Source: a virus (lineage: Duplodnaviria > Heunggongvirae > Uroviricota > Caudoviricetes). From it: a stretch of DNA of 20,361 bases. This document shows positions 3,321 through 20,361 of the stretch, piece after piece. The notes beneath the pieces were generated by a model. The model saw nothing but the letters and a program-made list of their open reading frames with translations. It had not been told where the DNA came from and ran no database searches. Positions within the stretch are counted from its first letter, which is position 1, and each line of letters opens with the position of its first letter. Made by a program: the position numbers and the translations under genes. The DNA lies in the IMG/VR virus record IMGVR_UViG_2734482780_000011, positions 1-20,361 of that record; one strand, given 5' to 3'.

Positions 3321-3542
3321 ATGACCCCTAATATTTCAATAACTCTGAATACACCACACGTCACAATTGAGCGTTATAGCGAACTTACTGGTCTTTCTAT
3401 CGACACAATCAACGATATGCTGGCTGATGGTCGCATCCCTCGCCATCGTCTTCGAAAAGACAAGAAAAGAGAAAAGGTAATGATCAACCTTGCTGCTCTC
3501 ACTGTTGATGCACTTACTGATTGCAATGTTGTATTTAACTAG
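3321..3542 (+). CDS. apl: Apl/Cox-like excisionase and transcriptional regulator
   Basis: 73-aa ORF directly right of the switch, AGGAG 9 nt before the ATG, small basic protein ([15 protein letters not shown]); position and size match 186 Apl / P2 Cox. Confidence 0.65.
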
Positions 3543-3574
3543 TTCCATTTTGGGATACATCAGGGGTGTCGACT

Positions 3575-4084: not shown

Positions 4085-4091
4085 GGTGCTT

Positions 4092-4325
4092 ATGCTGACG
4101 AAAGAACCATCATTTGCGTCGCTGCTGGTAAAACAAAGTCCGGCAATGCACTACGGTCACGGCTGGATTTATTTACCTTGTGGGAAAAAGTGGCATCCAA
4201 GTTTTGAATTACAACCCCGGCAACAGGCTTACCGGGGAAGAAATAAAAAGCGATTCCTACAAAGATTTATGGTTAACGTGGCAAACAACCTGCGAACCAA
4301 GCGAAAAGTTTTTCTTGGAAGCTGA
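4092..4325 (+). CDS. Hypothetical small protein; its 5' part is repeated at 4828..4887
   Basis: ORF MLTKEPSFASLLVKQSPAMHYGHGW... starting at ATG 4092; 3' end overlaps the antisense 124-aa ORF, so it may be a disrupted gene copy. Confidence 0.3.
   Translation: MLTKEPSFASLLVKQSPAMHYGHGWIYLPCGKKWHPSFELQPRQQAYRGRNKKRFLQRFMVNVANNLRTKRKVFLGS
4109..4168. repeat. 60-bp direct repeat, copy 1 (partner 4828..4887, about 4 mismatches)
   Basis: atcatttgcgtcgctgctggtaaaacaaagtccggcaatgcactacggtcacggctggat versus the near-identical copy 2; weaker similarity continues a further 30 bp. Confidence 0.85.
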
Positions 4326-4647
4326 GGTTTACATCGTCAACCCGACCACAGGCAATAGCAGCTCTTTTGTAGGCAGGGTTTAACAAAGATCCGAATGTTG
4401 TGGAGTCAGAGTGATGCAAAGCTTTCAATTTTTGTGCAATGAACTGTGGAGACAATTCATCCTCGGCGTAAAGCAACTCACCATATTGTCGGCTTTGTAC
4501 GCTTGCTCGTTCCGCAATAATAGCTGGTTGCCATACAAGTTGGATTGCTGTCATTAATTTATCAGCTCGACCATGGAACGTTGCTGTCATTAGTTCAAGG
4601 TAATAACAGTAGTGTAATTGGAAGTATTCGGAGCTTTGTTTAGTCAT
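4273..4647 (-). CDS. Hypothetical 124-aa protein, antisense to the early operon
   Basis: ORF on the minus strand inside an otherwise rightward-transcribed early region, bracketed by the 60-bp direct repeats; no recognisable motif. Confidence 0.5.
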   Translation of the reverse strand: MTKQSSEYFQLHYCYYLELMTATFHGRADKLMTAIQLVWQPAIIAERASVQSRQYGELLYAEDELSPQFIAQKLKALHHSDSTTFGSLLNPAYKRAAIACGRVDDVNLSFQEKLFAWFAGCLPR

Positions 4648-4656
4648 GCCGGATTC

Positions 4657-4737
4657 CTATTTCTTCTCTTGCCCCGGTTCAGGCTGAGGTGCTGGAGCCG
4701 GGCGAGGGAGTACATGAAAGTTGTCTGTTTCTGACAT
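4657..4737 (-). CDS. Possible 26-aa proline-rich peptide (MSETDNFHVLPRPAPAPQPEPGQEKK) upstream of the 124-aa ORF
   Basis: Minus-strand ATG at 4737 preceded by AAGGAG at 7-nt spacing; stop TAG 10 nt before the 124-aa ORF start. Too short for the ORF track. Confidence 0.3.
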   Translation of the reverse strand: MSETDNFHVLPRPAPAPQPEPGQEKK

Positions 4738-4827
4738 CAGTTTTCTCCTTTGAGGGGTAGATGATTGTTAGCACAAATAGTCTACCACTGAGGCACGCGC
4801 CGGGCGTGTAGAAAAATTCCCGGCACA

Positions 4828-5224: not shown

Positions 5225-5566
5225 ATGGCAATTAATGGCGCTGCGGCGACTGTTCCATTAAGCCCCGGTGAACGCCTGAATGGACTTAATCACATTGCGG
5301 AATTAAGAGCGAAAGTTTTTGGCCTGAATATTGAGTCAGAGCTTGAGCGGTTTATTAAAGATATGCGTGATCCACGGGATATCAATAATGAACAAAATAA
5401 ACGGGCACTGGCTGCCATATTCTTTATGGCAAAAATTCCAGCTGAACGTCATAGCATCAGCATTAATGAGCTGACCACTGACGAAAAGCGGGAGCTGATT
5501 AAAGCAATGAATCATTTTCGTGCAGTGGTGAGCTTATTTCCCAGACGGCTAACCATGCCGAATTAA
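5225..5566 (+). CDS. Hypothetical early-region protein (113 aa)
   Basis: ORF in the early operon; no recognised motif. Confidence 0.5.
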   Translation: MAINGAAATVPLSPGERLNGLNHIAELRAKVFGLNIESELERFIKDMRDPRDINNEQNKRALAAIFFMAKIPAERHSISINELTTDEKRELIKAMNHFRAVVSLFPRRLTMPN

Positions 5567-5633
5567 CCAACTAATGAAATTCATGGCGTAAACCCGCCAG
5601 GCATCCCTTTATCTAAATTCAGGAGAATTGATT

Positions 5634-5867
5634 ATGCGTAATATTGAAACCCTCACGACTAAAACCGGACCGGATGATGCAGGGCTTAATATTTTACTGA
5701 CAGAGGCTCGTCTGGAAGAACGCCGGGCAAGGGCTGAAGCAATGGCAGCTCGCCTTGATAGCCTGGCGTGTCATATCACATCCCGCCAGCTAAACCACGT
5801 CGAAGCGGCAGAACTGCTGCGTGTGACTGCTGAAGCAATCCAGAACGAAGCGCAGGAGATCCACTGA
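5634..5867 (+). CDS. Hypothetical early-region protein (77 aa)
   Basis: AGGAG 8 nt before ATG 5634; stop overlaps the start of the next gene (ATGA-type coupling at 5865..5869). Confidence 0.55.
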   Translation: MRNIETLTTKTGPDDAGLNILLTEARLEERRARAEAMAARLDSLACHITSRQLNHVEAAELLRVTAEAIQNEAQEIH

Positions 5868-6094
5868 TGGCTGATGCAATGGATCTCGTACAGCAGCGCG
5901 TTGAAGAAGAACGCCAGCGTCATATCCGTGCTGCCCGCGCCAAAACGCCGGGCGTATCCCGCGTGCTTTGCATTGAGTGCGAAGCACCAATTCCGCCAGC
6001 ACGACGTCGCGCCATTCCGGGTGTGCAGCTTTGCATTACCTGTCAGGAAATCGCAGAGCTGAAAGGCAAACATTACAACGGAGGTGCTGTATGA
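5867..6094 (+). CDS. TraR/DksA-family C4 zinc-finger protein
   Basis: CIECEAPIPPARRRAIPGVQLCITCQE contains the CxxC-(17)-CxxC zinc-finger pattern typical of phage TraR-like proteins; translationally coupled to its neighbours. Confidence 0.7.
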   Translation: MADAMDLVQQRVEEERQRHIRAARAKTPGVSRVLCIECEAPIPPARRRAIPGVQLCITCQEIAELKGKHYNGGAV

Positions 6095-6948
6095 GCACCA
6101 TCCTGAAATGGGCGGGTAATAAAACCGCCATTATGCCGGAACTGAAAAAATACCTTCCTGCTGGCCCGCGACTGGTTGAACCTTTCGCGGGTTCTTGTGC
6201 TGTGATGATAGAGACGGATTACCCCAGCTATCTTGTTGCGGATATTAATCCTGATTTAATCAACCTCTATAAAAAGGTTGCTGCTGATTGCGAGGCGTTT
6301 ATATCTCGTGCCAGAGCTTTATTTGAGGAAGCAAACAGGGAGGTGGCTTATTACAACATAAGGCAGGAGTTTAATTACTCCACTGAAATTACTGATTTCA
6401 TGAAAGCGGTATATTTCCTGTATCTCAATCGTCATGGTTACCGTGGGTTATGTCGCTATAACAAGAGCGGGCATTTCAACATTCCCTACGGGAATTATAA
6501 AAATCCGTATTTCCCTGAAAAAGAAATTCGCAAATTTGCAGAAAAAGCCCAGCGAGCAACGTTTATCTGCGCCAGCTTTGATGAAACGCTGGCGATGTTG
6601 AAGGCGGGGGATGTGGTGTATTGCGATCCGCCTTATGACGGTACGTTTTCCGGCTATCACACTGATGGCTTCACTGAGGATGACCAGTATCACCTGGCAT
6701 CCGTTCTTGAACATCGATCATCTGAAGGTCATCCGGTCATTGTTTCTAACAGTGACACATCCCTGATTCGTTCGCTGTATCGCAATTTCACTCACCACTA
6801 CATCAAGGCAAAACGCAGCATCGGCGTGTCGGCTGGCGAGAGTAAATCTGCAACAGAAATCATTGCTGTTTCCGGGGCGCGCTGCTGGGTGGGATTTGAT
6901 CCTTCGCGTGGCGTGGATAGTTCTGCTGTGTACGAGGTGCGTGTATGA
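6091..6948 (+). CDS. dam: DNA adenine methyltransferase (Dam-like N6-adenine MTase), no adjacent restriction gene
   Basis: N-terminus [26 protein letters not shown]-binding FAGSCAV, catalytic DPPY ([10 protein letters not shown]); GGAGGTG precedes the ATG at 6091; ORF-track start at 5977 is an upstream extension. Confidence 0.9.
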
Positions 6949-7757
6949 GTCATGACGATATGAGCAACTCTAGCGGCTTTAACGAGGCCGCTGCAGCATT
7001 TTCATGGAACGGCCCGAAAAAGGCCATTAACCCTTATCTGGACCCGGCGGAAGTTGCGCCGGAGTCTGCACTTTCAAACATGATCACTCTGTACGCTGCC
7101 GATAACGAGCAGGAACAGCTGCGCCGCGATGCACTGAGTGAGCAGGTCTGGGAGCGTTATTTCTTTAATGAATCCCGTGATCCTGTCCAGCGCGAAATGG
7201 AGCAGGATAATCTCATTAGTCGGGCAAAGCTGGCGCATGAGCAGCAGCGTTTTAACCCGGACATGGTCATTCTGGCGGACGTCAGCGCCCAGCCCACCCA
7301 CATCAGCAAGCCGCTGATGCAACGTATCGAATACTTCAGCAGCCTGGGCAGGCCAAAGGCTTATTCCCGCTATTTGCGTGAGACGATTAAGCCATGTCTG
7401 GAGCGACTGGAGTATGTACGCGACAGTCAGCTATCCGCTTCTTTCCGTTTTATGGCAAGCCATCAAGGGCTTGAGGGCCTGCTGATCCTGCCTGAAATGA
7501 GTCAGGATCAGGTAAAACGCCTGTCCACCCTGGTACGCCAGGTGAAGCTGAAAAGGCGTAAAGACTACAAACAGCGAATTACAGATCATCAGCATCAGCA
7601 GCTCGTCTATGAACTGAAGTCCAGAGGATTTGATGGCAGCGAGAAAGAGGTCGATTTACTCCTTCGCGGTGGCAGTATTCCGTCAGGAGCAGGCCTGCGT
7701 ATTTTCTATCGGAACCAGCGTTTGCAGGAAGATGATAAGTGGCGGAACCTGTATTAA
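6945..7757 (+). CDS. Hypothetical 270-aa protein
   Basis: ORF start overlaps the dam stop (ATGA at 6945..6948); acidic/glutamine-rich, no recognised domain; does not look like a rolling-circle replication initiator. Confidence 0.55.
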
Positions 7758-7826
7758 TTACGCAGGTTAACAATTCGTGCTCTTAATAATACCAGGCATA
7801 TCAGGCTGATGAACGTAAAAAAACGT

Positions 7827-7867
7827 TTTACATCAGTAAGATTATTATATACTGTAAATATAAACAG
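7827..7867 (+). promoter_or_regulatory. SOS-regulated promoter: -35 TTTACA (7827..7832), -10 TACTGT (7850..7855), LexA box CTGTAAATATAAACAG (7852..7867)
   Basis: The 16-bp sequence fits the LexA consensus CTGT-N8-ACAG with an AT-rich centre and overlaps the -10, the arrangement of LexA-repressed promoters such as 186 p95. Confidence 0.65.
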
Positions 7868-7910
7868 TGGTTATGTATACAGTGTTTCTTGTGGTGTTAT
7901 AGGAGGAAAG

Positions 7911-8099
7911 ATGCAGGACTATTTTTTGGAGTCTTTGAAGCTCCAGCGCATTGATTTTTTTCTTAAGCTTGTAGCGGCTAGTGAGTGTAGTGATGAAGAG
8001 AAAGGGCTGGCTCTGCAGTGGGTTTCTGAACTGACAGATGAACTCATGGCAAAAATCAGAACCCACGAATACAACCGCTCAATGGATGTCATCAGCTGA
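7911..8099 (+). CDS. Small SOS-induced protein, possible Tum-like antirepressor N-terminal module
   Basis: AGGAGG 8 nt before ATG 7911 (ORF-track start at 7809 lies upstream of the promoter); first gene after the LexA box; followed by a DinI-like gene, as in the 186 tum region. Confidence 0.45.
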   Translation: MQDYFLESLKLQRIDFFLKLVAASECSDEEKGLALQWVSELTDELMAKIRTHEYNRSMDVIS

Positions 8100-8109
8100 G
8101 GTGACTTTT

Positions 8110-8343
8110 ATGCGCATTGAAATAATGATCGATAAAGAGCAGAAGATTAGCCAGTCTACCCTGGACGCCCTTGAATCCGAGCTTTACCGCAATCTGCGCC
8201 CCCTGTATCCCAAAACGGTAATTCGCATTCGCAAAGGTAGCTCTAACGGTGTGGAACTAACCGGACTGCAACTGGATGAAGAAAGAAAACAAGTGATGAA
8301 AATTATGCAGAAGGTGTGGGAGGACGACAGCTGGCTGCATTAA
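8110..8343 (+). CDS. DinI-family protein
   Basis: MRIEIMIDKEQKISQSTLDALESELYRNLRPLYP...KVWEDDSWLH aligns by eye with E. coli DinI (MRIEVTIAK...AIDALAGELSRR...ETWESADDW). Confidence 0.8.
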   Translation: MRIEIMIDKEQKISQSTLDALESELYRNLRPLYPKTVIRIRKGSSNGVELTGLQLDEERKQVMKIMQKVWEDDSWLH

Positions 8344-8749
8344 GAAACGTTGCCCCCAGGAGGATTCATTCTGATGGGGGCTAGTTTGGGTAGCGAGTGA
8401 AACGAGGCGTAAGGTGGGCGGCCATTTTGATAAGTGATTGTACGATTTGTGTTGTGAGTTCAACGGGACGATGCAACGCTATCCTTAATCAAGGGGACGT
8501 TGCTCATACCCATCGATGCAATGAAAATCCATACTCATGGGGAAGACCAGAATGTCCCTGCCTTTTTCATTTTGTTCAGCACATGCACTATGGCCATTGC
8601 CTTCCCAAGCTAGCTATCGTAATCACTCAGCGTCAGTAAACTACTGAAAAATTGTTTTACCTTGTATATCAATAATGCCAAATCATACCCAAAAAATCGA
8701 AAATAATTAGATCGACAGGCAGAAGGCAATGTGAATAATCTTAAAAACC

Positions 8750-8779
8750 TTGACTGTCAGTGAGGTTTGGTTCTATAAA
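8750..8779 (+). promoter_or_regulatory. Candidate promoter of the darTG operon (-35 TTGACT, 18-nt spacer, -10 TATAAA)
   Basis: Read from the sequence, about 30 nt upstream of the darT start. Confidence 0.4.
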
Positions 8780-8810
8780 TAGACTTACGAATTTGAAAGG
8801 ATGAGTTGAA

Positions 8811-9392
8811 ATGAGCGAAAGGAAAAGAATTGAAGATCAGTATCTTCTCTATCATTTAACATGTATGGATAATCTACCTAGTATTTTAGACACAGGATTA
8901 AGATCTCGTGCATCAGTAAAAGGTGAGTTTGTTGATGTGGCCGACGGTGAAATAATAACAGGTCGCGAAGCATTAAATTTGCAAACAATGGTTCCTTTTC
9001 ATTTCTTTACTAAGAATCCATTTGATGGAAGAGTCCTGAAAGATCATAAGGAAAAATCATTTTGTATTATTTCGGTTTGTCGGGCATTTGCCAAAGAAAA
9101 TGGTTGGAAAGTTATCCCTAAACATCCATTATCCACCAGTTCTGTTATAGACCTCTTAGATTATGAACAAGGAATGGCCCAAATTGACTGGGAGCTAATG
9201 AATATAAGGGATTATAAAAATGCAGAATGCAAATCTGTATGTATGGCTGAGTGTTTATCAAGTGTAACGGTCGAGCCGAAAAATTTCCATTGCATCTTTG
9301 TCAAAAATGATAACGAAAAAAAATATGTTGAAGGGTTGATAAAACAACAAGGATTAAGTATATTGATAACGATCAACACTTATATGTTCTAA
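8811..9392 (+). CDS. darT: DarT-like ssDNA ADP-ribosyltransferase toxin (DUF4433 family)
   Basis: LYHLTCMDNLPSIL, VPFHFF, DWELM and a late acidic segment match my recollection of DarT signatures (IYHITHIDNLKGIL, VPFYF, DWEAM); AT-rich; immediately followed by a macrodomain gene. Confidence 0.7.
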   Translation: MSERKRIEDQYLLYHLTCMDNLPSILDTGLRSRASVKGEFVDVADGEIITGREALNLQTMVPFHFFTKNPFDGRVLKDHKEKSFCIISVCRAFAKENGWKVIPKHPLSTSSVIDLLDYEQGMAQIDWELMNIRDYKNAECKSVCMAECLSSVTVEPKNFHCIFVKNDNEKKYVEGLIKQQGLSILITINTYMF

Positions 9393-9396
9393 TTCT

Positions 9397-10368
9397 ATGA
9401 TTAAGTATGCAAGCGGAAATCTTCTAAACTCTACATCGCAAGCTCTTGTGAATGCTGTAAACTGCCAAGGAGTCATGGGAAAGGGTATTGCTTTGGCTTT
9501 TAAAGAAACTTTTCCCTATAATTTCGAAGTTTATAAGAGAGCATGCGCCACTGGTACAATGAAAATTGGACAGGTTTTAATTGTAGAGGAAAAGGGAAAA
9601 ATAATTGTAAACTTTCCCACTAAAGATAGTTGGAGAAAAAAATCAACATATGATTTTATCTCGCAAGGCCTTGAATCTTTAGCAAAAATTATAGATGAAA
9701 AAAAAATTACATCAATATCAATACCACCTTTAGGCTGTGGTAATGGGGGCCTCGATTGGAATAAGGTTGAGGCTCTTATTTTAAAAACTTTTCAAAATTT
9801 AGATAATGTTGATGTGGTAATTTATCCGCCTGCAACTAACAATCAACTTTCAAAAAATAAAAATGTTATTAATGCTAAGCATCTTTTGGTTCACTACGCC
9901 TATGGAAAATTAAAAGTTAAGCAAAAATATTCCCTTTATACAGTTTTTTATATTTGCGAATGTATTGAGAAAGCAAATCTTTTTTTATTCGATTTTAAAC
10001 ATGGTCGGCCATACTCTTCTGAGTTAGAAAATATTATGAAGGATATAGCAAACCTTAAAGTTGAGTTGCAAGGAGATTTTGATGCTTTTATTGAAGATTA
10101 TATTAATACTCATCAATCCAAAGAGTTACAAACCGAGTTTGGTAAACTAATCTCAACTTTAAATCCAAGTATAAGTTTGCTCAATGCTCTTAAAAATAAG
10201 ATTGATTATATAGATAGCGTACATGTGATCACGAGAATTGCTAAAGAAAAAGATCATGGCTTGCATATTGACAATTTCAAAGAATATGAAAATATTGTGC
10301 AGCATTTAATTAAAAATGGATTGGTAATCGAAGATATTTTTAACGAACTAAAAATAAAGGGAAGTTAG
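9397..10368 (+). CDS. darG: DarG-like macrodomain antitoxin
   Basis: N-terminus GNLLNSTSQALVNAVNCQGVMGKGIALAF is the macrodomain nucleotide-binding signature (N-x-x-N / G-x-G loop); 4 nt downstream of darT; AT-rich. Confidence 0.75.
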   Translation: MIKYASGNLLNSTSQALVNAVNCQGVMGKGIALAFKETFPYNFEVYKRACATGTMKIGQVLIVEEKGKIIVNFPTKDSWRKKSTYDFISQGLESLAKIIDEKKITSISIPPLGCGNGGLDWNKVEALILKTFQNLDNVDVVIYPPATNNQLSKNKNVINAKHLLVHYAYGKLKVKQKYSLYTVFYICECIEKANLFLFDFKHGRPYSSELENIMKDIANLKVELQGDFDAFIEDYINTHQSKELQTEFGKLISTLNPSISLLNALKNKIDYIDSVHVITRIAKEKDHGLHIDNFKEYENIVQHLIKNGLVIEDIFNELKIKGS

Positions 10369-10920
10369 TAGCGCTATTTTCAATTTTTTTGCTGAAATTG
10401 CGCATGCACACTCTCACGCATTATAGATGCGGCGTTAATCCCGCCAGGAGTGTTGTTTAATAAATTGAACTATTTCTGCATTGAAGGATCAACTTACGCA
10501 TTCGCTGACAACGCAGGCACTCTCCTGGCTAAGCAGAAATTCAGAGTAACCAACTGGCACTTTTACAACAATTTTCTTATCAGTTGCGGCTCCATGACTT
10601 TCTGGTGGGATAACAAAGCAATTAAGGCGTGGTATTGTAAGTATCCCGCATAATCATGCTAGTAACATTTGTCCCCCATGTAACCTAATTAAGGCAACTT
10701 CCGCTCTTCGCTCACAGTGAACCTCCATGTTTGTAAACCCGTATATTTCGTTTTTTAAGTGGTCATTCAGATACGGATTTTCACTTCTCTTGGCTGTGCA
10801 TGACTATGCTGCATGAAATTGCATGATCGTTTGAGGATCGTTTTTGCTGAGGCCCCCCAGAACTGGCGGGCTTTCGCTTATGTCATGCAGGTGCATGAAA
10901 ATCACTGCATAAAGCGGGCA

Positions 10921-10939
10921 GGCGTGGCGGGGATACGAG
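10921..10939. other. Candidate cos site (P2/186-type cohesive end region)
   Basis: ggcgtggcggggatacgagcgcgcgct resembles the P2/186 cohesive-end region as I recall it (GGCG[A/T]GGCGGGGAAAGCA...GCGCGCT); recalled, not searched. Four TGCATGA copies lie 20 to 125 bp upstream. Confidence 0.5.
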
Positions 10940-11091
10940 CGCGCGCTAAGTCATATAAGAGTTATATATTGATTTGATTGCTGGACATGCATACAGTATC
11001 GCTCTATCATCTAATAAATCTTAGAGTATTTGACAATGTTTGGATAAAATGGAACCTAACTTATTCATAATCCGCTAAACAGGGATGTCAG

Positions 11092-12006
11092 ATGCCATAC
11101 CAATTGGTAGAGCTTAGCCCCGTAGCTAACGATCTTGAACAGTTAGGAACCAAAGAGAAGTTTTGGTTCTATTTCTCCGATGACACTGTAAATTTGCAGT
11201 TGTTTAAGTACTCTAGGCCAGATACTGGCGAGCATTGGTCTGAAAAGTGTGCTGCTGAGTTATGTCATTTGCTTAACATTCCACATGCTAGCTATGATTT
11301 GGCGCGATACAATGGTCGATTCGGTGTGGTGACTCAGAATATCATTCCATCTGGTTTCCGGATGGTAATGGGAAATGAAGTGCTTCACAGTTCGACATTC
11401 GATTATCCTGGGCCTTTACAAGCCGGGGAAAAGCCGGTAAGGGTCAGAGAACACACTGTCACAAGGGTATTGGGTTGTTTAGATAGGGAATCTATCAAGC
11501 CTCCTCCGAGTGTATATGATCTAACCGGGCTAAATGCAGCAGATGTATTTTGTGGATATTTGATGCTCGATGCACTTGTGAGTAATCAAGATCGCCATCA
11601 TGAAAATTGGGCGATCATGCTTAACAATGAAACTGGTGAGCAGTTTTTGTGTCCAACATACGATCATGCCGCTAGTTTAGGAAGGGAGATGTTAGATGAT
11701 GAGCGTAACGAACGGCTTAATACTAAAGATAAAAATCGACAAATCCCATGTTTTGTAAGAAAAGCTCGCTCTGAGCTATTCAAAGCAAAAACTGATAAAA
11801 AGCCCTTGCTGACCGTTGAAGCATTTCAACATGCAGTTGAAGGGAGAGTTGCCGCTCGCGACCATTGGTTAGGTAAGTTGAGCGTTTTAACAGAAGATTC
11901 CATTACAGATGTGTTTAACCAAGTGCCTTCATCGTGTATATCCGACAGTGCACGTAGATTTGCAACGTTAATGGTAATGGAAAATCGCAGAAGGTTACTA
12001 GAATGA
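11092..12006 (+). CDS. HipA-like serine/threonine kinase, short form lacking the N-terminal domain (304 aa)
   Basis: GTKEKFWF (compare HipA GAQEK), catalytic-loop-like LVSNQDRHHENWAIM (compare HipA D-x-H-x-K-N) and LCPTYDHAASLG (compare HipA P-x-YD) in the HipA order and spacing. Confidence 0.65.
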   Translation: MPYQLVELSPVANDLEQLGTKEKFWFYFSDDTVNLQLFKYSRPDTGEHWSEKCAAELCHLLNIPHASYDLARYNGRFGVVTQNIIPSGFRMVMGNEVLHSSTFDYPGPLQAGEKPVRVREHTVTRVLGCLDRESIKPPPSVYDLTGLNAADVFCGYLMLDALVSNQDRHHENWAIMLNNETGEQFLCPTYDHAASLGREMLDDERNERLNTKDKNRQIPCFVRKARSELFKAKTDKKPLLTVEAFQHAVEGRVAARDHWLGKLSVLTEDSITDVFNQVPSSCISDSARRFATLMVMENRRRLLE

Positions 12007-12743
12007 CTAATACAAACTCCGTTTACGTCGCATGGCAGGCACCAGATACCAGAGACTGGCATGTTGTTGGTAACTTGCAAGAGCGCAAATCGGGGTATGT
12101 TTTCAGGTATACCAAAGGTGCTCTTAAATCTACTAAATTTACAAAGTTTAGCGGCATGAGTGATGTTCGTGAAACTTATGTTTCGGAAGAATTGTTTCCT
12201 CTTTTTAAAAATCGCCTTTTATCACCGAGACGTCCAGAGTATCCGAGTTTCATTAAATGGCTTGGATTTGAAGAAGATAAGGTAAATCCTATCGATATTC
12301 TTGCTCGCTCGGGAGGCCTACGAAGCACTGATCAGCTGCAGATTTTCAAAAAAATTGATGTTGATTCTGATGGTAACTTTGAGCATTTTTTCTTCTTACA
12401 TGGACTTGGTTACTTAAATAGCTTAGCTAATGCTCGTGTATCTGAATTGAAACCGGGGCAAATTTTGCGTCTTTGCTTGGATCTTCAAAATGAATACGAT
12501 GGGGATGCTGTTGTCGTTCGTGCAGATAAACCAGCTGAAATCGTTGGTTATTGCCCTAGGTATTTAAGTAATGATATCAAGAAGATGTTATTGGATGATC
12601 CAAAATCAATCACTTTAACGGTCGAAAAGATTAGCGATGATGCTCCTCATAACTATCGGTTATTATGTAAATTATCAGGAGTACTAAGCCAAGCCTGTCA
12701 ATCGACGCTGATTCCTCAGGATGAGTTTGAACCTATTGAGTAA
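12003..12743 (+). CDS. Two-domain partner: HipA-N/HipS-like N-terminal domain fused to a C-terminal HIRAN-like domain (246 aa)
   Basis: Start overlaps the kinase stop (ATGA). N-terminus VYVAWQ...VGNLQ...YVFRY...LFPLFKNRLLSPRR resembles the HipA N-terminal domain. C-terminus KPGQILRLCLDLQNEYDGDAVVVRADKPAEIVGYCPRYLSNDIKKMLLDD fits the HIRAN pattern. Confidence 0.55.
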   Translation: MTNTNSVYVAWQAPDTRDWHVVGNLQERKSGYVFRYTKGALKSTKFTKFSGMSDVRETYVSEELFPLFKNRLLSPRRPEYPSFIKWLGFEEDKVNPIDILARSGGLRSTDQLQIFKKIDVDSDGNFEHFFFLHGLGYLNSLANARVSELKPGQILRLCLDLQNEYDGDAVVVRADKPAEIVGYCPRYLSNDIKKMLLDDPKSITLTVEKISDDAPHNYRLLCKLSGVLSQACQSTLIPQDEFEPIE

Positions 12744-12748
12744 ATGAA

Positions 12749-12774
12749 GAAAAGCCACCAAACGGTGGCTTTTC
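12749..12774. terminator. Bidirectional rho-independent terminator between the HipA-like module and Q
   Basis: 11-bp perfect stem gaaaagccacc / ggtggcttttc with a 4-nt loop, T-rich flanks on both strands, between convergent stops at 12743 and 12778. Confidence 0.7.
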
Positions 12775-12777
12775 TTA

Positions 12778-13818
12778 TTATGGGACTATATCTAGCGAGT
12801 AGGTATTAAACTGTATCGCCTCCTTGCCAAGCCAATCATTCATCTCCTGTAATCGCTTTTGTAGTGGCATTAGCTCATTTCGGACGAATACACGGCTTGC
12901 CTTCTCCACATCCCCAAACCCCCCAACATTATTCGGCATAATCCCCATCATTTGCGGCGGCACACGATGCGCCGCCATCATGTCGTCCCGGCTTACGTTC
13001 TTGATGTTCAGAAACTCATCCTTTGCCGCCACTTCTGACAGCGGGATGATCTGAAGCCCGTCCTTTTTGCCGTTAGGCGAGTACATAAACAGGTTGCGGA
13101 AGTTGCCCGGACCTTTGGCGCTTTTCATCGCGTTGCGGAGGTTGTTCACATCCTCCTGGTTCTGAGCGGCATCGGTCATGTACATTATGAATCCTGCATG
13201 GCTGCCATTAATATAATATTTGCGTCGGAACAGCGTGGCGGACTCGTTGAGCAGGGCTGACGGAATGGCAGAAAGATAGCCGGGCAGGCCGTAGATCTCC
13301 TGGTTGATATCGGGTTCCATCAGATGAAAGATGCTGCCTTTCGTGAACTGATACGGCTGGGTTGTCATACCGTATTGCACAAACCAGTAGGTATCCAGGT
13401 CTAACCCGCGTCGGGTGTATTTTGCCAGAGCAGGCTCAAGGGCGATAACTTCACCGAAGCGGTTCGTGCGTTTCTCCAGGTAGGCGTTACCAAATACCAG
13501 ATAGTCCTGCACAAAACGTGAAAAAGCCTGCTGGCTAAGCAGCGGGTGAGGGATGTAGGTGCTGGTTAGAATGTTGCATTTCACTGCAATGGGTGAGCTG
13601 TGATGCACGGCGGCGCGGAAGGTTCGCGCCAGTCCGTCAAAGCTGACGGGCGGCTCATACCAACGGTCCATCTGTACGCATTCCACATAGTCCAGTAATT
13701 CTCGGCGGTCCAGTACTGGAATGGGATCGCCGAAGCTGAATGCTTCGGCTGAAGTCTGGCTTTTATGCTGGGTCTGGTTCTGCGACGCAGCGCGGTTCTT
13801 CTTACTCTTTCCCATCAA
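12778..13818 (-). CDS. Q: Portal protein (P2 gpQ-like)
   Basis: 346 aa, close to the size of P2 gpQ; start overlaps the stop of the upstream terminase fragment as in the P2 PQ operon; 3' end points toward the cos-like site. Confidence 0.8.
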   Translation of the reverse strand: MMGKSKKNRAASQNQTQHKSQTSAEAFSFGDPIPVLDRRELLDYVECVQMDRWYEPPVSFDGLARTFRAAVHHSSPIAVKCNILTSTYIPHPLLSQQAFSRFVQDYLVFGNAYLEKRTNRFGEVIALEPALAKYTRRGLDLDTYWFVQYGMTTQPYQFTKGSIFHLMEPDINQEIYGLPGYLSAIPSALLNESATLFRRKYYINGSHAGFIMYMTDAAQNQEDVNNLRNAMKSAKGPGNFRNLFMYSPNGKKDGLQIIPLSEVAAKDEFLNIKNVSRDDMMAAHRVPPQMMGIMPNNVGGFGDVEKASRVFVRNELMPLQKRLQEMNDWLGKEAIQFNTYSLDIVP

Positions 13819-14231
13819 AAAATCTCCACAATATTGCTGGTATTGGCGGACTCGCCCTGCAGCGGTTCGTTAAACAGTGCGTGCATTGTTGCCCAGGCCA
13901 GATCGGCGTGGCTGGCTTCTTCGCTGCGGCTGGCTTCATAGGTCGGGCGGTTGCCACTGGCGGTGGTGGCGCGACGGATTGCCATAAATGACTGCGCTAT
14001 GTCGGTGTGTCCGGCGTCAAACTCCAGACGGCGGTGGCTGATAATGTCGTAGGCCTTGAGTACCAGAGCGTTTTTAACGTTGGGGTTGTAGACAAACTCC
14101 CGGACGGCAGGAAAGAACGCTTTCACGTTCTCATAAACCCCGTGACCGACGCCTGTCGAGTCAATGCCGATATAGGTCACGTTGTACTGCTCGGTCAGTT
14201 TTTTGATTCCGCCCTTAATCATCTCAACCAT
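13815..14231 (-). pseudogene. P: Terminase large subunit (gpP-like), C-terminal 138-aa remnant
   Basis: Only the C-terminal part of what should be an approximately 590-aa protein; coupled to Q; no upstream start or ATPase region present. Confidence 0.65.
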
Positions 14232-14298
14232 GCGTTACAGCTCGATCCCCGCTGTGGCGTGAAAAAAGACAAACAGCAGCTGGAGCGCAGACTGCGCA

Positions 14299-15618
14299 AT
14301 GACAGCCGCTGACAGAACGTGCCCCCGCGCACGGGCGGCACGGGGTGGCGAAAGGCACAGCCACATCAAAACCCCGTCCACCGCCCTTTATTTCAGGAGA
14401 AAGCAGCATGAAGTTTGTTGCGCCAGAACAGGCAACGCCGCAGGTTTACTTACTGCGCCGTTGTCGTCTTTGCGCCGCACGGCATCACTGACGGGAAATG
14501 TCCTGAAAACTGTAGCAGGTGCGCCGGTTGCACTTTTGCGGTCTGGATTATCCGGTTTACGTGCTGTTGCTGTTATGTTTATGAATCCTCTGGCGGTACT
14601 GCGCGGTGGACTGGCCGCCGCAGGCACGGTGCTGCGAGTACTGGCATCTGGTCCACTGGCGATGCTGCGCGTTGCCCTGTATGCCATATCTGGTCTGTTA
14701 GGTGCTCTGCTCAGTCCGATAGGTCTTGTGGTTACTGCACTGGCGGGCGTGGCGCTGGTTGTCTGGAAATACTGGCAACCCATCACCGCATTTCTCGGTG
14801 GCGTGGTGGAAGGATTCAAAGCGGCGGCAGGTCCCATCAGTGCAGCGTTCGAACCGCTTAAGCCCGTGTTCCAGTGGATTGGCGACAAAGTGCAGGCGCT
14901 GTGGGGCTGGTTTACTGATCTGCTGACGCCCGTTAAGTCGACCTCTGCCGAACTGCAGAGCGCAGCGGCAATGGGGCGGCGATTCGGGGAGGCACTGGCG
15001 GAAGGGCTGAATATGGTCATGCATCCGCTGGACTCCCTGAAATCCGGCGTTTCCTGGTTGCTGGAGAAGCTCGGCATTGTCAGTAAAGAGGCCGCAAAGG
15101 CAAAACTGCCGGAAAGCGTGACGCGTCAGCAACCTGCGACGGTGAATGCAGACGGTAAAGTGATGATGCCATCGGGTGGTTTTCCATCATGGGGATATGA
15201 CTTTGCGGGGATGTATGACAGCGGCGGGTATATCCCGCGCGGGCAGTTTGGCATCGTCGGTGAAAACGGGCCGGAAATTGTTAACGGCCCGGCAAATGTG
15301 ACCAGCCGGAGAAATACAGCTGCACTGGCTGCCGTTGTTGCCGGAATGATGGGCGTTGCTGCCGCGCCAGCAGAGCTTCCACCGTTGCACCCTTTGGCAC
15401 TTCCCGCGAAAGGTGGAGAAGCAATTGTGAGTCGCGCAGCCACTGTGCCGCTCGTTCAACGGATTGAGGCACCGACGCAGATCATCATTCAGACGCAGCC
15501 AGGACAAAGTGCGCAGGATATTGCGCGGGAGGTGGCACGCCAGCTTGATGAACGTGAACGCAGGCTGAAGGCAAAAGCCAGGAGTAACTACAGCGATCAG
15601 GGGGGATACGACGCATGA
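14299..15618 (+). pseudogene. T: Tail tape measure protein (gpT-like), C-terminal portion only
   Basis: Gly/Ala-rich helical repeats and GGYIPRGQFGIVGENGPEIV near the C-terminus; 439-codon frame versus about 800 aa expected; followed directly by U and D. Confidence 0.65.
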
Positions 15619-16100
15619 TGATGGTGCTGGGATTGTACGTGTTTATGCTGCGCACCGTTCCGTATCAGGAACTGCAGTATCAACGCAGCTGGCGACATGC
15701 GGCAAACAGTCGGGTAAACCGACGTCCGTCCACGCAGTTTCTGGGACCGGAAAACGACATGCTGACGCTTTCCGGTGTTCTTATGCCGGAAATAACAGGC
15801 GGCAGGCTGTCGTTGCTGGCACTGGAGCAGATGGCAGAACAGGGGAAAGCATGGCCCCTGATTGAAGGCAGCGGCACGATTTACGGCATGTATGTGATTG
15901 AGGGACTGAATCAGACTAAAACGGAGTTTTTCCGCGATGGTATGCCGCGCCGGATTGAGTTCACCCTGTCGCTCAAACGGGTGGATGAATCCCTGTCCGA
16001 TATGTTCGGTGATCTCAGTGCGCAGCTGAATAATTTGCAGGATACGACAACGTCTGCCTTAAGCGATATCAGTAAAACGGTGGGAGGGCTGCTGTCGTGA
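15615..16100 (+). CDS. U: Tail protein gpU-like
   Basis: 161 aa, same size and position as P2 gpU between T and D; start overlaps the T stop. Confidence 0.8.
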   Translation: MMMVLGLYVFMLRTVPYQELQYQRSWRHAANSRVNRRPSTQFLGPENDMLTLSGVLMPEITGGRLSLLALEQMAEQGKAWPLIEGSGTIYGMYVIEGLNQTKTEFFRDGMPRRIEFTLSLKRVDESLSDMFGDLSAQLNNLQDTTTSALSDISKTVGGLLS

Positions 16101-17197
16101 ATTTCAGCTCTGAACTGCTTAACAAAGGCAACAAAACTCCGGCATTCAGCATCAGTATTGAGGGTAAGGATATCACCACTGTGCTGGATAACCGCCTGAT
16201 GAGTCTGACGCTGACGGACAATCGGGGCTTTGAAGCGGACCAGCTTGATCTGGAGCTGGACGACGCCGACGGAAAAATCGTGCTGCCGCGCCGTGGTGCG
16301 GTCATTACGCTGGCGTTGGGCTGGAAGGGGCAGTCGCTTTTCCCGAAAGGAGCATTCACGGTGGACGAGATTGAACACACTGGCGCACCGGACCGCCTGA
16401 CTATCCGGGCGCGAAGTGCTGATTTTCGTGAAACCCTGAATATCCGCCGTGAAAAATCGTGGCACAAGACCACCGTTGGGGAAGTGGTGAAGGAAATAGC
16501 TGTGCGGCACAAACTGAAGATGGCATTGGGTGAAGACCTGTCGGATAAACCTGTGGAACATATAGACCAGACCAATGAGAGTGACGGCAGTTTTCTGATG
16601 CGGCTGGCGCGCCAGTACGGTGCTATTGCGTCGGTGAAAAATGGCAATCTGTTATTCATCCGGCAGGGACAGGGTAAAAGCGCCAGCGGTAAACCACTAC
16701 CGGTTATCACTATCACACGTAAGGACGGCGACAGTCACCGCTTTACCCTGGCAGATCGCGGAGCCTACACGGGCGTAATTGCCAGCTGGTTGCATACCCG
16801 CGAACCCGCGAAGAAAGAAAGCACCACGGTGAAGCGTAAGCGCAGGACTAAGAAGCAGAAGAAAGAGCCGGAAGCGAAGCAGGGCGATTACCTGGTGGGT
16901 ACAGATGAAAACGTGCTGGTACTTAATCGCACCTATGCCAACCGGAGCAACGCCGAACGGGCGGCGAAAATGCAGTGGGAACGCCTGCAACGTGGCGTTG
17001 CGTCATTCTCGCTACAACTGGCAGAAGGTCGGGCGGATCTCTACACGGAAATGCCAGTGAAAGTCAGAGGCTTTAAACAGCCGATAGATGATGCGGAATG
17101 GACTATTACCACCCTGACGCATACTGTCAATCCGGATAACGGTTTTACGACCAGTCTGGAGCTTGAAGTGAAGATTAATGATTTCGAAATGGAATGA
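16097..17197 (+). CDS. D: Tail protein gpD-like
   Basis: 366 aa, GTGA overlap with the U stop, located immediately before ogr as in P2/186. Confidence 0.8.
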   Translation: MNFSSELLNKGNKTPAFSISIEGKDITTVLDNRLMSLTLTDNRGFEADQLDLELDDADGKIVLPRRGAVITLALGWKGQSLFPKGAFTVDEIEHTGAPDRLTIRARSADFRETLNIRREKSWHKTTVGEVVKEIAVRHKLKMALGEDLSDKPVEHIDQTNESDGSFLMRLARQYGAIASVKNGNLLFIRQGQGKSASGKPLPVITITRKDGDSHRFTLADRGAYTGVIASWLHTREPAKKESTTVKRKRRTKKQKKEPEAKQGDYLVGTDENVLVLNRTYANRSNAERAAKMQWERLQRGVASFSLQLAEGRADLYTEMPVKVRGFKQPIDDAEWTITTLTHTVNPDNGFTTSLELEVKINDFEME

Positions 17198-17287
17198 TTC
17201 TTCGTAATAGAGAACTTTTAAGTTTTCAAAATGGAATAATGCGGTATCATTATTGTGAATTTAGCAAAAATGGGGAGAACTCGAAAA

Positions 17288-17506
17288 ATGATGATTTGCC
17301 CACTGTGTGGAAGTGCCGCCCATACTCGCAGCAGTTTTCAGGTATCTTCATTGACCAAAGAGCGTTACAACCAGTGCCAGAACATTAACTGCAGCCATAC
17401 TTTTGTTACCCATGAAACTTTTGTTCGTTCGATTGCAACGCTAAAAGAGTCAAATCCGGTTCAGCCGCATCCAATGAAATCAGGACAGGTGGCGCTCTCT
17501 CTTTGA
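17288..17506 (+). CDS. ogr: Late gene transcription activator Ogr/B (zinc finger)
   Basis: MMICPLCGSAAHTRSS...CQNINCSHTF matches the Ogr CxxC-N22-CxxxxC pattern; 72 aa from ATG 17288 (GGGGAGA upstream). Confidence 0.85.
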   Translation: MMICPLCGSAAHTRSSFQVSSLTKERYNQCQNINCSHTFVTHETFVRSIATLKESNPVQPHPMKSGQVALSL

Positions 17507-17508
17507 CT

Positions 17509-17529
17509 CTGCCGCCAATTTGTCGCCAT
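17509..17529. repeat. Candidate attR core, direct repeat of 21..41
   Basis: ctgccgccaatttgtcgccat, 3 nt after the ogr stop. Confidence 0.5.
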
Positions 17530-17582
17530 CGTTAAAAAACAGTGCTTCTAACATCATGATTTTAAACGGCATAAATTTCAGG

Positions 17583-17629
17583 CAACAAAAAACCCATCAA
17601 CCTTGAACCGAAATGGCGGGGTTGATGGG
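17583..17629 (-). terminator. Rho-independent terminator downstream of ybjL (minus strand)
   Basis: 10-bp perfect stem cccatcaacc / ggttgatggg followed on the minus strand by TTTTTTGTT. Confidence 0.6.
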
Positions 17630-17741
17630 CTCCACAAAATGGGGACATCAAAGAAAAGCAGTGGCACTAATTAAGACTGATGCCCTGCGGAAAAGTTCTG
17701 CGGTTGTGCAAAAAAATTTCATTTTCAGGGCAACTTCAGTT

Positions 17742-19427
17742 TTATCCTAATCCTGGCCATACCATGACGATGATTGTCCCTGCCAGCGTCAGCAGGACGT
17801 TGGCGATTGCGTAGGTGCCCGCATAGCCCAGCGCAGGGATGTTACTGCGAGCTGTATCACTGATGATCTCCATTGCCGGCGCGCAGGTGCGTGCGCCCAT
17901 CATTGCGCCGAACAACAGTGCGCGGTTCATTCGCAATACATAAGCACCGAACAAGAAACAGATAACCACGGGCACAAGACTGACAATTAATCCGGCAATC
18001 AACATCTGACCGCCAATCGCGCCCAGGCCGTTATTAATACCGCTACCGGCGCTCAGACCAACGCCTGCCATAAACACCATCAAGCCGAACTCTTTCACCA
18101 TGCTTAATGCACCTTGCGGAATGTAACCGAAGGTCGGGTGGTTAGCACGCATAAAGCCCAGCATAATTCCGGCGAATAACAACCCGGCAGCGTTCCCCAT
18201 GCCGAAACTGAATGTGCTGAACTGGAAGGTGATCATCCCGATCATCAGCCCAATAACAAAGAAGGCGCAAAATGCCAGCAGGTCAGTGACCTGGCTGTGA
18301 ATCGAGATAAAGCCGATGCGATCGGCGATGGTTTTTACGCGACGGGCATCACCGCTGACTTGTAAAACGTCACCTTTGTTAAGCACGACGTTGTCATCTA
18401 TCGGCATCTCAATCTGGCTACGAATGACGCGGTTAAGGAAGCAACCGTGATCGGTCAACTTCAGTTGTGCGAGACGTTTACCTACAGCGTTATGGTTTTT
18501 AACGACCACTTCTTCAGTGACGATACGCATGTCGAGAAGGTCACGATCGAAAACTTCTTTACCGTTACGGAAGCTGGGATCGAGTCGGGCATGGGCGTCG
18601 GGATAGCCTACCAACGCTATTTCATCGCCCATTTGTAGCACGGCATCACCGTCTGGATTTGCCAGAATCCCGTTACGTCGAATACGTTCAATGTAGCAGC
18701 CGGTTTGTCGATAAATACCCAGTTCACGCAGATTTTTGCCGTCGGTCCAGGCCACCAGCTCCGGGCCGACGCGATAGGCGCGGATCACCGGTAAATAAAC
18801 CTTACGGTTGGCATCAGTGTCCAGGCCACGTTCGCGGGCGATTTGCTGGGCGCTGGTCTGTAAGTCCTGATGCTGCAATTTCGGCAAGTAACGCGCACCA
18901 ACAATCAAACTCACCAGACCGATTAAATAGGTTAAGGCATACCCGAGGCTCAGATTATCCAGTGCCAGTGAGAGCTGCCTGCTTTCCATGCCGGAATGAC
19001 GCAGTGTATCGCCAGCACCGACCAGAACCGGTGTCGACGTCATAGAGCCTGCTAACATACCGGCCGTCAGGCCAATATCCCAGCCAAACAGCTTACCTAA
19101 CCCTAAGGCGATCACCAGCGCACTGCCAACCATCACCAGTGCTAACATTAGGTAATTTTTCCCATCGCGAAAAAAAATGGAAAAAAAGTTCGGTCCGGCT
19201 TCGACCCCGACGCAGAAAATAAACAGCATAAAGCCAAGATTAAGCGCATCGGTGTTAATGCTGAAATGTTGTTGGCCTAATAACAGCGATACGACTAAAA
19301 CGCCAATGGAATTACCCAGTTGGATCGAACCAAGTCGTAACTTTCCGAGACATAGCCCAAGCGCGAGGACCACAAATAATAACAGAATGTAATTCCCATT
19401 TAACAATTCGGCGACGTTTATATTCAC
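17742..19427 (-). CDS. ybjL: Putative AAE-family transporter YbjL (chromosomal)
   Basis: 561-aa membrane protein starting [33 protein letters not shown], recognised as E. coli YbjL; followed by ybjM and grxA in the K-12 order. Confidence 0.9.
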
Positions 19428-19696
19428 GGAGGCTAACTTCTTGTTTACTAGTAAGCTGTTGAAAGAAATGGTAATTTACGATAATGTTTTTTACCAGAAT
19501 TCAGGGCGCAGATTCATTCAGCGCACCTAAACGATAGTAAAGTAACAATATATTTTACTAGTGTAATCACATTAGGTATCAACGGCTATATGAATTGCGT
19601 TGGCCTATATTAGCATGGAATGCGAAGCGGCTTTATCTTACTGAACGCCACACTGGCGAAAAATGTGTTCGATAGACGCAGTGTCAGGAGGAACGA

Positions 19697-20074
19697 GTGA
19701 AACATAAACAACGTTGGGCGGGGGCAATCTGCTGTTTTGTCCTCTTCATTGTGGTGTGCCTTTTTCTGGCGACGCACATGAAAGGCGCTTTTCGGGCTGC
19801 CGGGCATCCTGAAATCGGCTTGCTATTTTTCATTCTTCCTGGAGCAGTGGCCAGCTTCTTTTCACAGCGTAGAGAAGTCCTGAAACCTCTGTTTGGCGCA
19901 ATGCTGGCGGCACCCTGTTCGATGCTCATTATGCGGCTGTTTTTTTCACCGACGCGCTCATTCTGGCAAGAGCTGGCATGGTTACTAAGCGCGGTGTTCT
20001 GGTGTGCGCTGGGGGCACTGTGTTTCTTATTTATCAGTAGTTTGTTTAAACCACAGCACAGAAAAAATCAGTAA
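19697..20074 (+). CDS. ybjM: Inner membrane protein YbjM (chromosomal)
   Basis: 125-aa hydrophobic protein between ybjL and grxA, as in E. coli K-12. Confidence 0.85.
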   Translation: MKHKQRWAGAICCFVLFIVVCLFLATHMKGAFRAAGHPEIGLLFFILPGAVASFFSQRREVLKPLFGAMLAAPCSMLIMRLFFSPTRSFWQELAWLLSAVFWCALGALCFLFISSLFKPQHRKNQ

Positions 20075-20094
20075 AGCCCTCAACGCGAGGGCTT
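20074..20094. terminator. Hairpin terminator between convergent ybjM and grxA
   Basis: 8-bp stem aagccctc / gagggctt with loop aacgc; T-run on the minus strand side. Confidence 0.5.
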
Positions 20095-20103
20095 GTCAGA
20101 CGA

Positions 20104-20361
20104 TCAGGCGTCCAGATTTTCTTTCACCCATGCAGCAAAATCGGTATAGCCGCCGATATGTTGCTGATCGACAAAAATCTGCGGCACGGTTTCTACGGGT
20201 TTACCTGCCTTTTGTTGTAGATCTTCTTTAGTGATCCCTTCCGCACGAATATCTACATACTGATACTGAAAATCATCGCGTTCATTGCTCAATTTCTCAG
20301 CCAGATCTTTTGCACGCACACAGTAAGGGCAACCCGAACGACCAAAAATAACGGTTTGCAT
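20104..20361 (-). CDS. grxA: Glutaredoxin 1
   Basis: MQTVIFGRSGCPYCVRAKDLAEKL... with the CPYC active site; 85 aa; start codon at the window edge. Confidence 0.95.
   Translation of the reverse strand: MQTVIFGRSGCPYCVRAKDLAEKLSNERDDFQYQYVDIRAEGITKEDLQQKAGKPVETVPQIFVDQQHIGGYTDFAAWVKENLDA

Follow-up and report, generated by a model that had tools for sequence, protein, structure and literature searches.

The late region of this prophage raises the question of how the end of a large terminase gene came to lie beside the distal part of a tape-measure gene, and of what the short stretch of DNA between them represents. The initial annotation had described a deletion junction joining the two remnants, with everything that normally stands between genes P and T being absent. 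The window (i.e., the whole stretch of 20,361 nt that was analyzed) is a segment of the E. coli chromosome with a P2/186-family prophage between rcdA and rybB/ybjL; rcdA lies just beyond its left edge, and rybB/ybjL form the right flank of the prophage. Thousands of E. coli genomes match the host flank at 99% identity or more, and the prophage backbone is 92–99.8% identical to Peduoviridae, e.g., Escherichia phage 500465-1 and Klebsiella phage KP12. RybB is the sole Rfam match in the whole window (17584–17662, minus strand, 105 bits), and the 3' end of its sRNA gene is the attR core, AACAAAAAACCCAT (14 bp, 17584–17597). This core was recognized when the two end regions were compared on the SRR2239636 contig, where it forms a direct repeat of 14 bp and the longest stretch shared by them; the contig is 100% identical to the window and places the attL copy 75–88 nt to the left of window position 1. 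From core to core the element measures 17,671 bp, the length of an intact relative being approximately 34 kb. Since the rcdA and ybjL flanks are the same in intact relatives, including the prophage of E. coli LR-71-1, an internal deletion fits better than a rearrangement, as far as the approximately 20 kb of host genome visible here allow one to judge. The early region, the order of the late genes, a 19-nt cos between A and Q, and att cores at the site used by the relatives are those of the P2/186 family, and on these sequence features the element is classified as a P2/186-family prophage (Peduoviridae, Wadgaonvirus-like), of which it is a deletion derivative.

Alignment to intact genomes, which had been proposed as the way to define the deletion endpoints, was carried out with two references, namely phage 500465-1 (NC_049342.1) and the apparently intact prophage found at the same locus in E. 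coli LR-71-1 (NZ_AP027599.1). On the 500465-1 locus, positions 13813–14207 of the window correspond to 8437–8831, the 3' end of P; positions 14207–14437 correspond to 12805–13035, which run from the terminal part of M through the M-L spacer into the beginning of L; and positions 14431–17418 correspond to 26376–29341, where T begins at nucleotide 1891 of 3078 and is followed by U, D and ogr. The alignment to the LR-71-1 prophage is likewise broken into pieces (up to 15470, 19443–19673, and from 31582 onwards), with 99.4%, 99.6% and 98.5% identity, respectively. The middle piece is an island of 231 bp (14207–14437), 97.4–99.6% identical to intact relatives, collinear with them and in native orientation. 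As this island is that of the M-L stretch of intact phages, in its proper order and orientation, two joints are required, which were placed at 14207/8 and 14431–14434. Hence, the claim that nothing is left between P and T does not hold, and the deletion, real as it is, consists of two joints and not of a single P-to-T junction. One P-to-T deletion that produced the junction ORF as a by-product is suggested at first sight by the distance of 223 bp between the P and T remnants and by the apparent loss of all the rest; the alignments of 14207–14437 with M-L of intact phages, at 97–99.6% identity, refute it, and we regard it as extremely improbable. Instead, it is very likely, on the sequence comparison, that positions 14208–14437 are an inert compound scar, in which two joints (J1 and J2) enclose the 231-bp M-L island of a rybB-site P2/186-family prophage of E. 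coli.

Both joints, as well as a third one in gene A (J3), could be mapped to the nucleotide by comparing parent and product sequences, with 2–4 nt of microhomology and no repeat found in that comparison. J1, between P and M, lies at 14207–14208 within the dinucleotide TT, and unites positions 8831 and 12805 of the 500465-1 locus (15470 and 19443 of the LR-71-1 locus). Approximately 3.97 kb were lost there, i.e., the 5' 78% of P, the stretch holding the promoter region of P/O, genes O and N, and the larger part of M. J2, between L and T, lies at 14431–14434 within the 4-nt microhomology GGCA, uniting positions 13035 and 26376 of the 500465-1 locus (19673 and 31582 of the LR-71-1 locus), so that L codon 9/10 is followed by T codon 631. 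The loss at J2 amounts to approximately 11.9 kb relative to LR-71-1 and 13.3 kb relative to 500465-1, the larger figure being due to an extra invertase and fibre module in the phage; missing here are the remainder of L, gene X, the lysis cassette, genes R and S, those for baseplate, fibre, sheath and tube, E, and T codons 1–630. In the late region, alignment to 500465-1 was obtained only at positions 6692–7651, 8437–8831, 12805–13035 and 26376–29341 of that locus, and the genes of the phage for scaffold, capsid, lysis (holin, endolysin and spanins), baseplate, tail fibre, sheath and tube fall in the gaps. With O, N, L to S, lysis, V to G, FI/FII and E missing according to the gene map of the relatives, the earlier statement that the element cannot make virions is supported. 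The element thereby shows what is expected of a defective prophage, namely the absence of essential capsid, tail and lysis genes, and joints that bring together positions lying far apart, though collinear, in intact genomes.

The pieces brought together in the scar can be read individually. To its left stands a remnant of the large terminase gene (P', 13815–14208, minus strand), comprising the last 130 codons and the stop, matching the Terminase_6C profile over positions 41–154 of 155 only, and without the ATPase domain or the first part of the nuclease domain; it shows 0 differences from the LR-71-1 prophage. The gpP-like ORF of 138 C-terminal codons noticed earlier is thus a genuine C-terminal remnant of P, but only 130 of its codons derive from that gene. 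The ORF (13815–14231, 138 aa) reaches as far as 14231, where antisense M happens to offer an ATG, and its first eight codons (MVEMIKGG, 14208–14231) are antisense M beyond J1. The island itself starts with the last 35 codons, including the stop, of the small terminase subunit gene (M', 14209–14312, plus strand), and continues with the M-L spacer, the L ribosome-binding site and the first nine codons of the head-completion gene L (14313–14434, plus strand; 12911–13035 of the 500465-1 locus). Within it lies the 27-codon ORF (14408–14491, plus strand; translation MKFVAPEQATPQVYLLRRCRLCAARHH, followed by the stop). The description of this ORF was correct in its ATG at 14408, its strong ribosome-binding site (AGGAG, 14395–14399) and its being out of frame with T. 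It is, however, not a new gene but the native start of L fused out of frame to T, as it opens with MKFVAPEQA, the nine residues with which gpL begins in a relative. To the right, the tape-measure remnant (T', 14431–15618, plus strand) holds codons 631–1025, matches the tape-measure families phrog_5690 and phrog_28, and is 99.6% identical to phage 500465-1. The next rightward frame therefore does carry T sequence, as had been proposed; yet it retains 395 of the 1025 codons (39%) rather than about half. The open frame around it (14299–15618) has 439 codons, of which the 44 upstream codons from the ATG at 14299 are not T.

We then considered whether the junction could be an artefact of assembly or a chimera. 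Short-read assemblies may collapse repeats, and nothing more specific speaks for this explanation; against it, the joints are present at 100% identity in the Logan assemblies SRR11308074, ERR14207023 and SRR2239636 (contigs of 18–61 kb, at least three independent runs), no repeat stands at the joints, and the SRR2239636 contig is identical to the window over all 17,757 of the 17,757 shared nucleotides. As the joints recur identically in independent assemblies, they are real, and the chance of an artefact is close to nil. Exact-sequence lookup of the junction-spanning P' protein returned six Logan contigs in all.

These sister contigs also give an order of events. In the window, the replication-endonuclease gene A (A', 6945–7757, plus strand) carries an in-frame internal deletion of 1,602 bp (534 codons), the third scar of the element (J3, 7534–7535, microhomology TA), and A' matches the PHROG family phrog_91 by its N-terminus only. 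The A deletion is included in the SRR2239636 contig, while the contig from SRR11308074, 100% identical to window positions 5417–20361 in every other respect, has an intact A (804 aa). Given that J1 and J2 are the same on a contig with intact A, both are older than the A deletion. Two sequential deletions would be the simplest history of J1 and J2 themselves. The alternative is that one complex event made both, e.g., repair of a replication intermediate, broken or stalled, by a template switch in which 231 bp of M-L were copied. Consistent with this, J1 was never found in a genome lacking J2, an intermediate with J1 only or J2 only was found neither among 5,426 complete E. coli genomes nor in the other collections searched, and both joints have very short microhomology. 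Yet two independent deletions would leave precisely such an island, collinear and natively oriented; two or three separate deletions are also seen in other remnants of this E. coli locus, e.g., F829; and the A deletion attests to a stepwise build-up of scars in this lineage. A single complex event is, on this evidence, unlikely, and two successive deletions are preferred. Short microhomology at joints is typical of RecA-independent illegitimate recombination in the deletion biology of E. coli, and RecA-independent slippage or end-joining may have made both. A secondary structure was also considered as a cause, but a quasi-palindrome to the right of J2 was discarded, since its folding energy of -10.1 kcal/mol is unexceptional (z = -1.17, with 28 of 200 shuffled sequences folding as well), and a repeat search found no inverted repeat to the right of J2.

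Nine other E. coli derivatives of the same phage family were found at this locus (VE-V10-F, YZ_2_2, LR-46, F829, CFSAN061772, S43, CPE35, D2 and AST205). As in the window, the structural genes were lost, with Q (with or without P') remaining on the left, and T' or T, U, D and ogr on the right. Unlike the window, they have other breakpoints, and J1 and J2 occur in none. Because all breakpoints differ among the derivatives, they represent independent events; F829 is the only other one with multiple scars. Parent sequences were inspected for five of the T-side joints, which have microhomologies of 1–5 nt. We also asked whether the T-side breakpoint of J2 falls in a deletion hotspot, as that of YZ_2_2 is 2 nt away, that of CPE35 is 9 nt away, and two more are within 90 nt. 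In an evenly spaced survey, T was truncated in approximately 126 of 1,095 T-bearing records, with endpoints from 543 to 2906, roughly uniformly distributed at approximately 0.045 per nt. Considering this density of truncations, and the fact that the matches had been seeded from the window, the cluster is not clearly beyond chance (p of approximately 0.08 for two neighbours within 10 nt), and a hotspot was rejected as unproven. Descent of the window from an ancestor of the CFSAN061772 type, with which it shares HIRAN cargo and whose breakpoint is 49 nt upstream, was likewise rejected, as the two are only 95.5–98.7% identical. Outside the scar of the window, three independent joints share their right end at 24430–24432 of the 500465-1 locus, a tighter coincidence than the one around J2.

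Regarding expression of what is left, P2-type phages have four Ogr-dependent late promoters that sit in intergenic stretches. On the map of 500465-1, the intergenic stretches that hold the late promoters of the relatives lie within the deleted intervals, and this includes the late-promoter region of Q. Moreover, no sigma-70-like promoter was found on the plus strand between 12700 and 15000; in total there was 1 site against 1.3 expected. With the late-promoter stretches deleted and no sigma-70-like promoter near the scar, the late remnants are probably silent: Q, P', M', L', T', U and D would have no late promoter left, and would be mere debris. The frames concerned are otherwise well preserved. 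The portal gene Q (12778–13818, minus strand; Pfam Phage_portal) is an intact ORF differing from the LR-71-1 prophage by 3 nt and 1 aa; gpU (15615–16100, plus strand; annotated Phage_P2_GpU on a sister contig) and the late-control/tail gene for gpD (16097–17197, plus strand; Pfam Phage_GPD) are intact, and none of the three has internal stops. The ogr/Delta-like late activator gene (17288–17506, plus strand) is intact as well, being Ogr_Delta on the 100%-identical sister contigs, with its position mapped from a relative.

It might be argued from these intact ORFs (T', U, D and ogr) that the scar encodes a selected function, carried out by the C-terminal fragment of T with U and D, or by the 27-aa peptide; the truncated T does keep its 3' end in all eight rows listed of the E. 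coli survey. However, the geometry of the region predicts precisely this, as the DNA that can be dispensed with amounts to approximately 18 kb on the left of T and approximately 2 kb on its right, and the truncation points among the rows listed are spread over T, from 543 to 2906. Moreover, the absence of a detected promoter, with the late-promoter stretches deleted, speaks against such a function, and youth explains the intact ORFs, T' showing only 2 differences from the LR-71-1 prophage in 1,188 nt. We therefore hold a functional scar to be very unlikely, and an inert one remains the preferred reading.

The age of the scar can be judged from the same comparison. Q, P', the island and T' show 3, 0, 1 and 2 differences from the LR-71-1 prophage, respectively, i.e., 6 in approximately 2,850 nt (approximately 0.2%), and no stops. 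J1 and J2 were found in 0 of 5,426 complete E. coli genomes, the exact J2 pattern had 0 matches in GTDB species representatives and JGI metagenomes, and the exact patterns of both joints had 0 matches in IMG/VR. The low divergence and the absence from 5,426 genomes point to a young, lineage-specific scar.

Outside the late region, the element retains much of a P2/186-type genome, in agreement with the initial annotation, which had listed int, the immunity switch, the SOS module and three cargo loci. The integrase gene int (1–1068, minus strand) has the Pfam domains Int_N and Phage_integrase of tyrosine integrases. The immunity switch consists of cI (2625–3299, minus strand; Phage_CI_repr and Phage_CI_C, 186-type), an apl-like gene (3321–3542, plus strand), cII (3566–4084, plus strand; Phage_CP76) and fil (within the ORF 4062–4325, plus strand; PHROG cell-division inhibitor Fil). 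A DUF5347 gene (5225–5566) and dam (5977–6948) follow, both on the plus strand, and the SOS module is represented by a LexA box (7852–7867, plus strand) ahead of a DinI-like gene (8038–8343, plus strand). The cargo occupies the slot between int and cI as well as both sides of cos. DarT/DarG (8811–10368, plus strand; Pfam DarT and Macro; PADLOC DarT 2e-36, DarG 1e-80) has the DarT ADP-ribosyltransferase gene adjoining the DarG macrodomain antitoxin gene, as expected of DarTG, and both this system and PDC-M03 (HipA-like plus HIRAN; 11092–12743, plus strand) are full length. The cos, read from the sequence as GGCGTGGCGGGGATACGAG (19 nt; 10921–10939, plus strand), lies inside a 150-bp block conserved among the relatives. 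The identical cos, GGCGTGGCGGGGATACGAG, has been published for the P2-like phage SEN8 (PMC5427200). The reference cos of P2, GGCGAGGCGGGGAAAGCAC, was looked for in the window and in the compared loci and was absent from all, the variant cos being found in the conserved block instead.

The third cargo locus, between int and cI (1143–2609, minus strand), codes for a 488-aa protein. Its family comprises 16 clusters of hypothetical proteins from enterobacteria, and R427, N428, A431 and H432 are all invariant, forming an Rx4H motif (HEPN-like). The protein had no match in Pfam, NCBIfam, PHROGs or PADLOC, and none at E<0.001 in a Foldseek search against the PDB. Judging by the motif, this protein is a candidate abortive-infection RNase, and would be more novel than the scar.

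The combination of lost virion genes and retained cargo had been taken as consistent with a domesticated defense-carrying remnant, i.e., one kept by selection for its cargo rather than in neutral, recent decay. Indeed, DarT/DarG and PDC-M03 are full length, PDC-M03 differs by 0–1 nt from the copy of the intact prophage, and the cargo stayed while lysis, morphogenesis and then replication were lost; furthermore, defective P2-like elements with conserved defense genes have been reported (PMC13586616). On the other side, the lineage with these joints is uncommon, being represented by 6 Logan contigs and by none of the 5,426 complete genomes, and persistence across diverged host lineages, as expected of domestication, was not observed, the joints having been found on those six contigs only. 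In addition, intact cargo is expected of a very young remnant anyway, so that no selection is needed to explain it, and the retained genes differ from the intact relative by just 0–3 nucleotides each, which is too few for a test of purifying selection. Altogether, we consider selection for the cargo possible but doubtful, with neutral, recent decay as the preferred account.

As regards the host, the prophage should be unable to lyse the cell or to build particles by itself, and the later, in-frame deletion in A should also block replication after induction in the lineage of the window; the integration, immunity, SOS and defense-cargo genes are still carried by the element. Mobilization by a helper is conceivable, as int, an apl-like gene for a possible excisionase, the att cores, an exact P2-type cos and ogr were kept, and the element has about half the length of the relative. 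In such a case, a superinfecting or co-resident phage of the P2/186 type might excise and package the remnant (e.g., as a dimer), which would then act as a satellite-like vehicle. We regard this as a long shot; if true, DarTG, PDC-M03 and the HEPN-like gene would travel on a helper-dependent element, and a helper phage would here be turning hitch-hiker. More generally, the locus offers a nucleotide-resolved case of decay in a P2-type prophage, in which lysis and morphogenesis were lost first and replication later, while immunity, integration and cargo stayed. It also corrects an annotation trap, as P', T' and the 27-codon ORF are to be regarded as debris and not as genes. Beyond this the scar has little consequence, and the tube-like/HEPN protein and the possible cos mobilization of the remnant are more promising leads.

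Comparison with known systems places the element among its relatives. Phage 500465-1 and the LR-71-1 prophage have the same integration site and att core as the window, and the gene order of intact relatives is also the same (int-cI-apl-cII-fil-...-dam-A-DinI-cos-cargo-Q-P ... T-U-D-ogr). The LR-71-1 prophage, in addition, has the same PDC-M03 cargo, and is 99.4–99.6% identical around the scar. The window differs from these intact relatives in the loss of approximately 16–17 kb with structural and lysis genes, as well as of 1.6 kb from A, in having other cargo in the slot between int and cI, and in the addition of DarTG. The class of defective P2-like elements with defense genes is already described: defective P2-like prophages with near-identical defense genes, among which pseudogenes of replication genes are frequent, were documented recently (Nucleic Acids Res 2026, PMC13586616), and the cos-proximal region from A to Q was identified as a P2-like defense hotspot (Rousset et al. 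2022, PMC9122126). Like that class, the element has lost mobility and replication functions, its defense genes are intact, and it holds cargo between A and Q by cos. The published studies provide class-level statistics, whereas the compound scar, with J1 and J2 preceding the A deletion, is a single case that they do not contain. With P4-like satellites the element shares an integrase of its own, a P2-type cos, an Ogr/Delta-type activator, a cos-side defense hotspot and the lack of capsid and tail genes. It differs from them in having no alpha primase/helicase, sid/psu or epsilon, with the satellite families alpha, sid, psu, delta and epsilon giving no match among the larger ORFs scanned, and in that its sole replication gene, A, is internally deleted. 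As the backbone genes that gave matches are all of the P2/186 type, the element is best understood as a decayed helper-type phage rather than as a member of a satellite lineage.

The distal deletion in the window ends inside the tape-measure gene T, at 14431-14434, and four further T-side breakpoints, all independent, were identified in same-locus prophages of other E. coli strains (position 26508 in L003, 3293 in L011, 6964 in L006 and 16884 in L002). All five of these breakpoints lie within nt 1803-1900 of T, and three of them within 10 nt of each other. When truncated T genes were surveyed at even spacing, their endpoints looked roughly uniform, so that the clustering within T nt 1803-1900 may be an effect of ascertainment. 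A significant hairpin was sought at the T-side breakpoint region, and none was found.

A second set of deletions shares its right breakpoint upstream of T. Joints were located in strains F829 (L005, position 9845; left partner, sheath nt 23324), S43 (L010, position 2081; left partner, P nt 9062) and AST205 (L013, position 1802; left partner, P nt 8783). These are independent events with different left partners, while their right breakpoints fall within 3 nt of one another, at 24430-24432 of the intact Escherichia phage 500465-1 (L001), in the E' region and 55 nt upstream of T; this position may represent a break-prone site. By eye, a cos-like string, GGAATGGCGGTATAAAGCG, was also observed to begin 16 nt to the right of this breakpoint.

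The replication endonuclease gene A (6945-7757, plus strand) carries an internal deletion of 534 codons, with its joint at 7534-7535, TA microhomology at the joint and the reading frame kept. In the sister contig L007, from SRR11308074, A is intact while the rest is 100% identical to the window, which indicates that the gene A deletion is the youngest scar. At the integration site, the RybB sRNA gene was identified on the minus strand (17584-17662; Rfam, 105 bits), and the prophage att core corresponds to the last 14 nt of rybB, from which it follows that integration occurs in the 3' end of that gene, which the phage thereby rebuilds.

Regarding cargo, a complete DarT/DarG toxin-antitoxin defence pair is located on the plus strand (8811-10368) between the DinI-like gene and cos, an insertion also present in E. 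coli LR-46 with 98.5% identity. Also on the plus strand, a two-gene module (11092-12743) encodes a HipA-like kinase of 304 aa and a HIRAN-domain protein of 246 aa. In PADLOC this module matches candidate system PDC-M03, with E values of 2e-122 and 3e-93, and the intact prophage of LR-71-1 carries a copy that differs from it by 0-1 nt. The two slots are kept apart by a 150-bp conserved block common to P2-like phages (10796-10946), at the end of which lies the cos site GGCGTGGCGGGGATACGAG (10921-10939), an exact match to the published SEN8 cos (PMC5427200); upstream of it, the motif TGCATGA occurs four times directly and once inverted.

A further slot, between int and cI, holds an ORF of 488 aa (1143-2609, minus strand) with no match in Pfam, NCBIfam, PHROGs or PADLOC. 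Its family comprises 16 clusters of enterobacterial hypothetical proteins, with R427, N428, A431 and H432 invariant (an Rx4H motif), and the protein is a candidate for a new RNase of abortive infection that includes a phage-tube-like domain. Moreover, a stretch of about 650 bp between fil and DUF5347 (about 4169-4824), containing a 124-aa ORF of unknown function (4273-4647, minus strand; phrog_6315), was matched by nothing in the relatives aligned over this region (L002-L004 and L014), and may represent a fourth small cargo slot.

Finally, a LexA box of perfect consensus, CTGTAAATATAAACAG (7852-7867, plus strand), the single match in the whole window against 0.22 expected, lies upstream of a 62-aa ORF and the DinI-like gene, a layout resembling that of the tum antirepressor module in phage 186, which is under SOS control.
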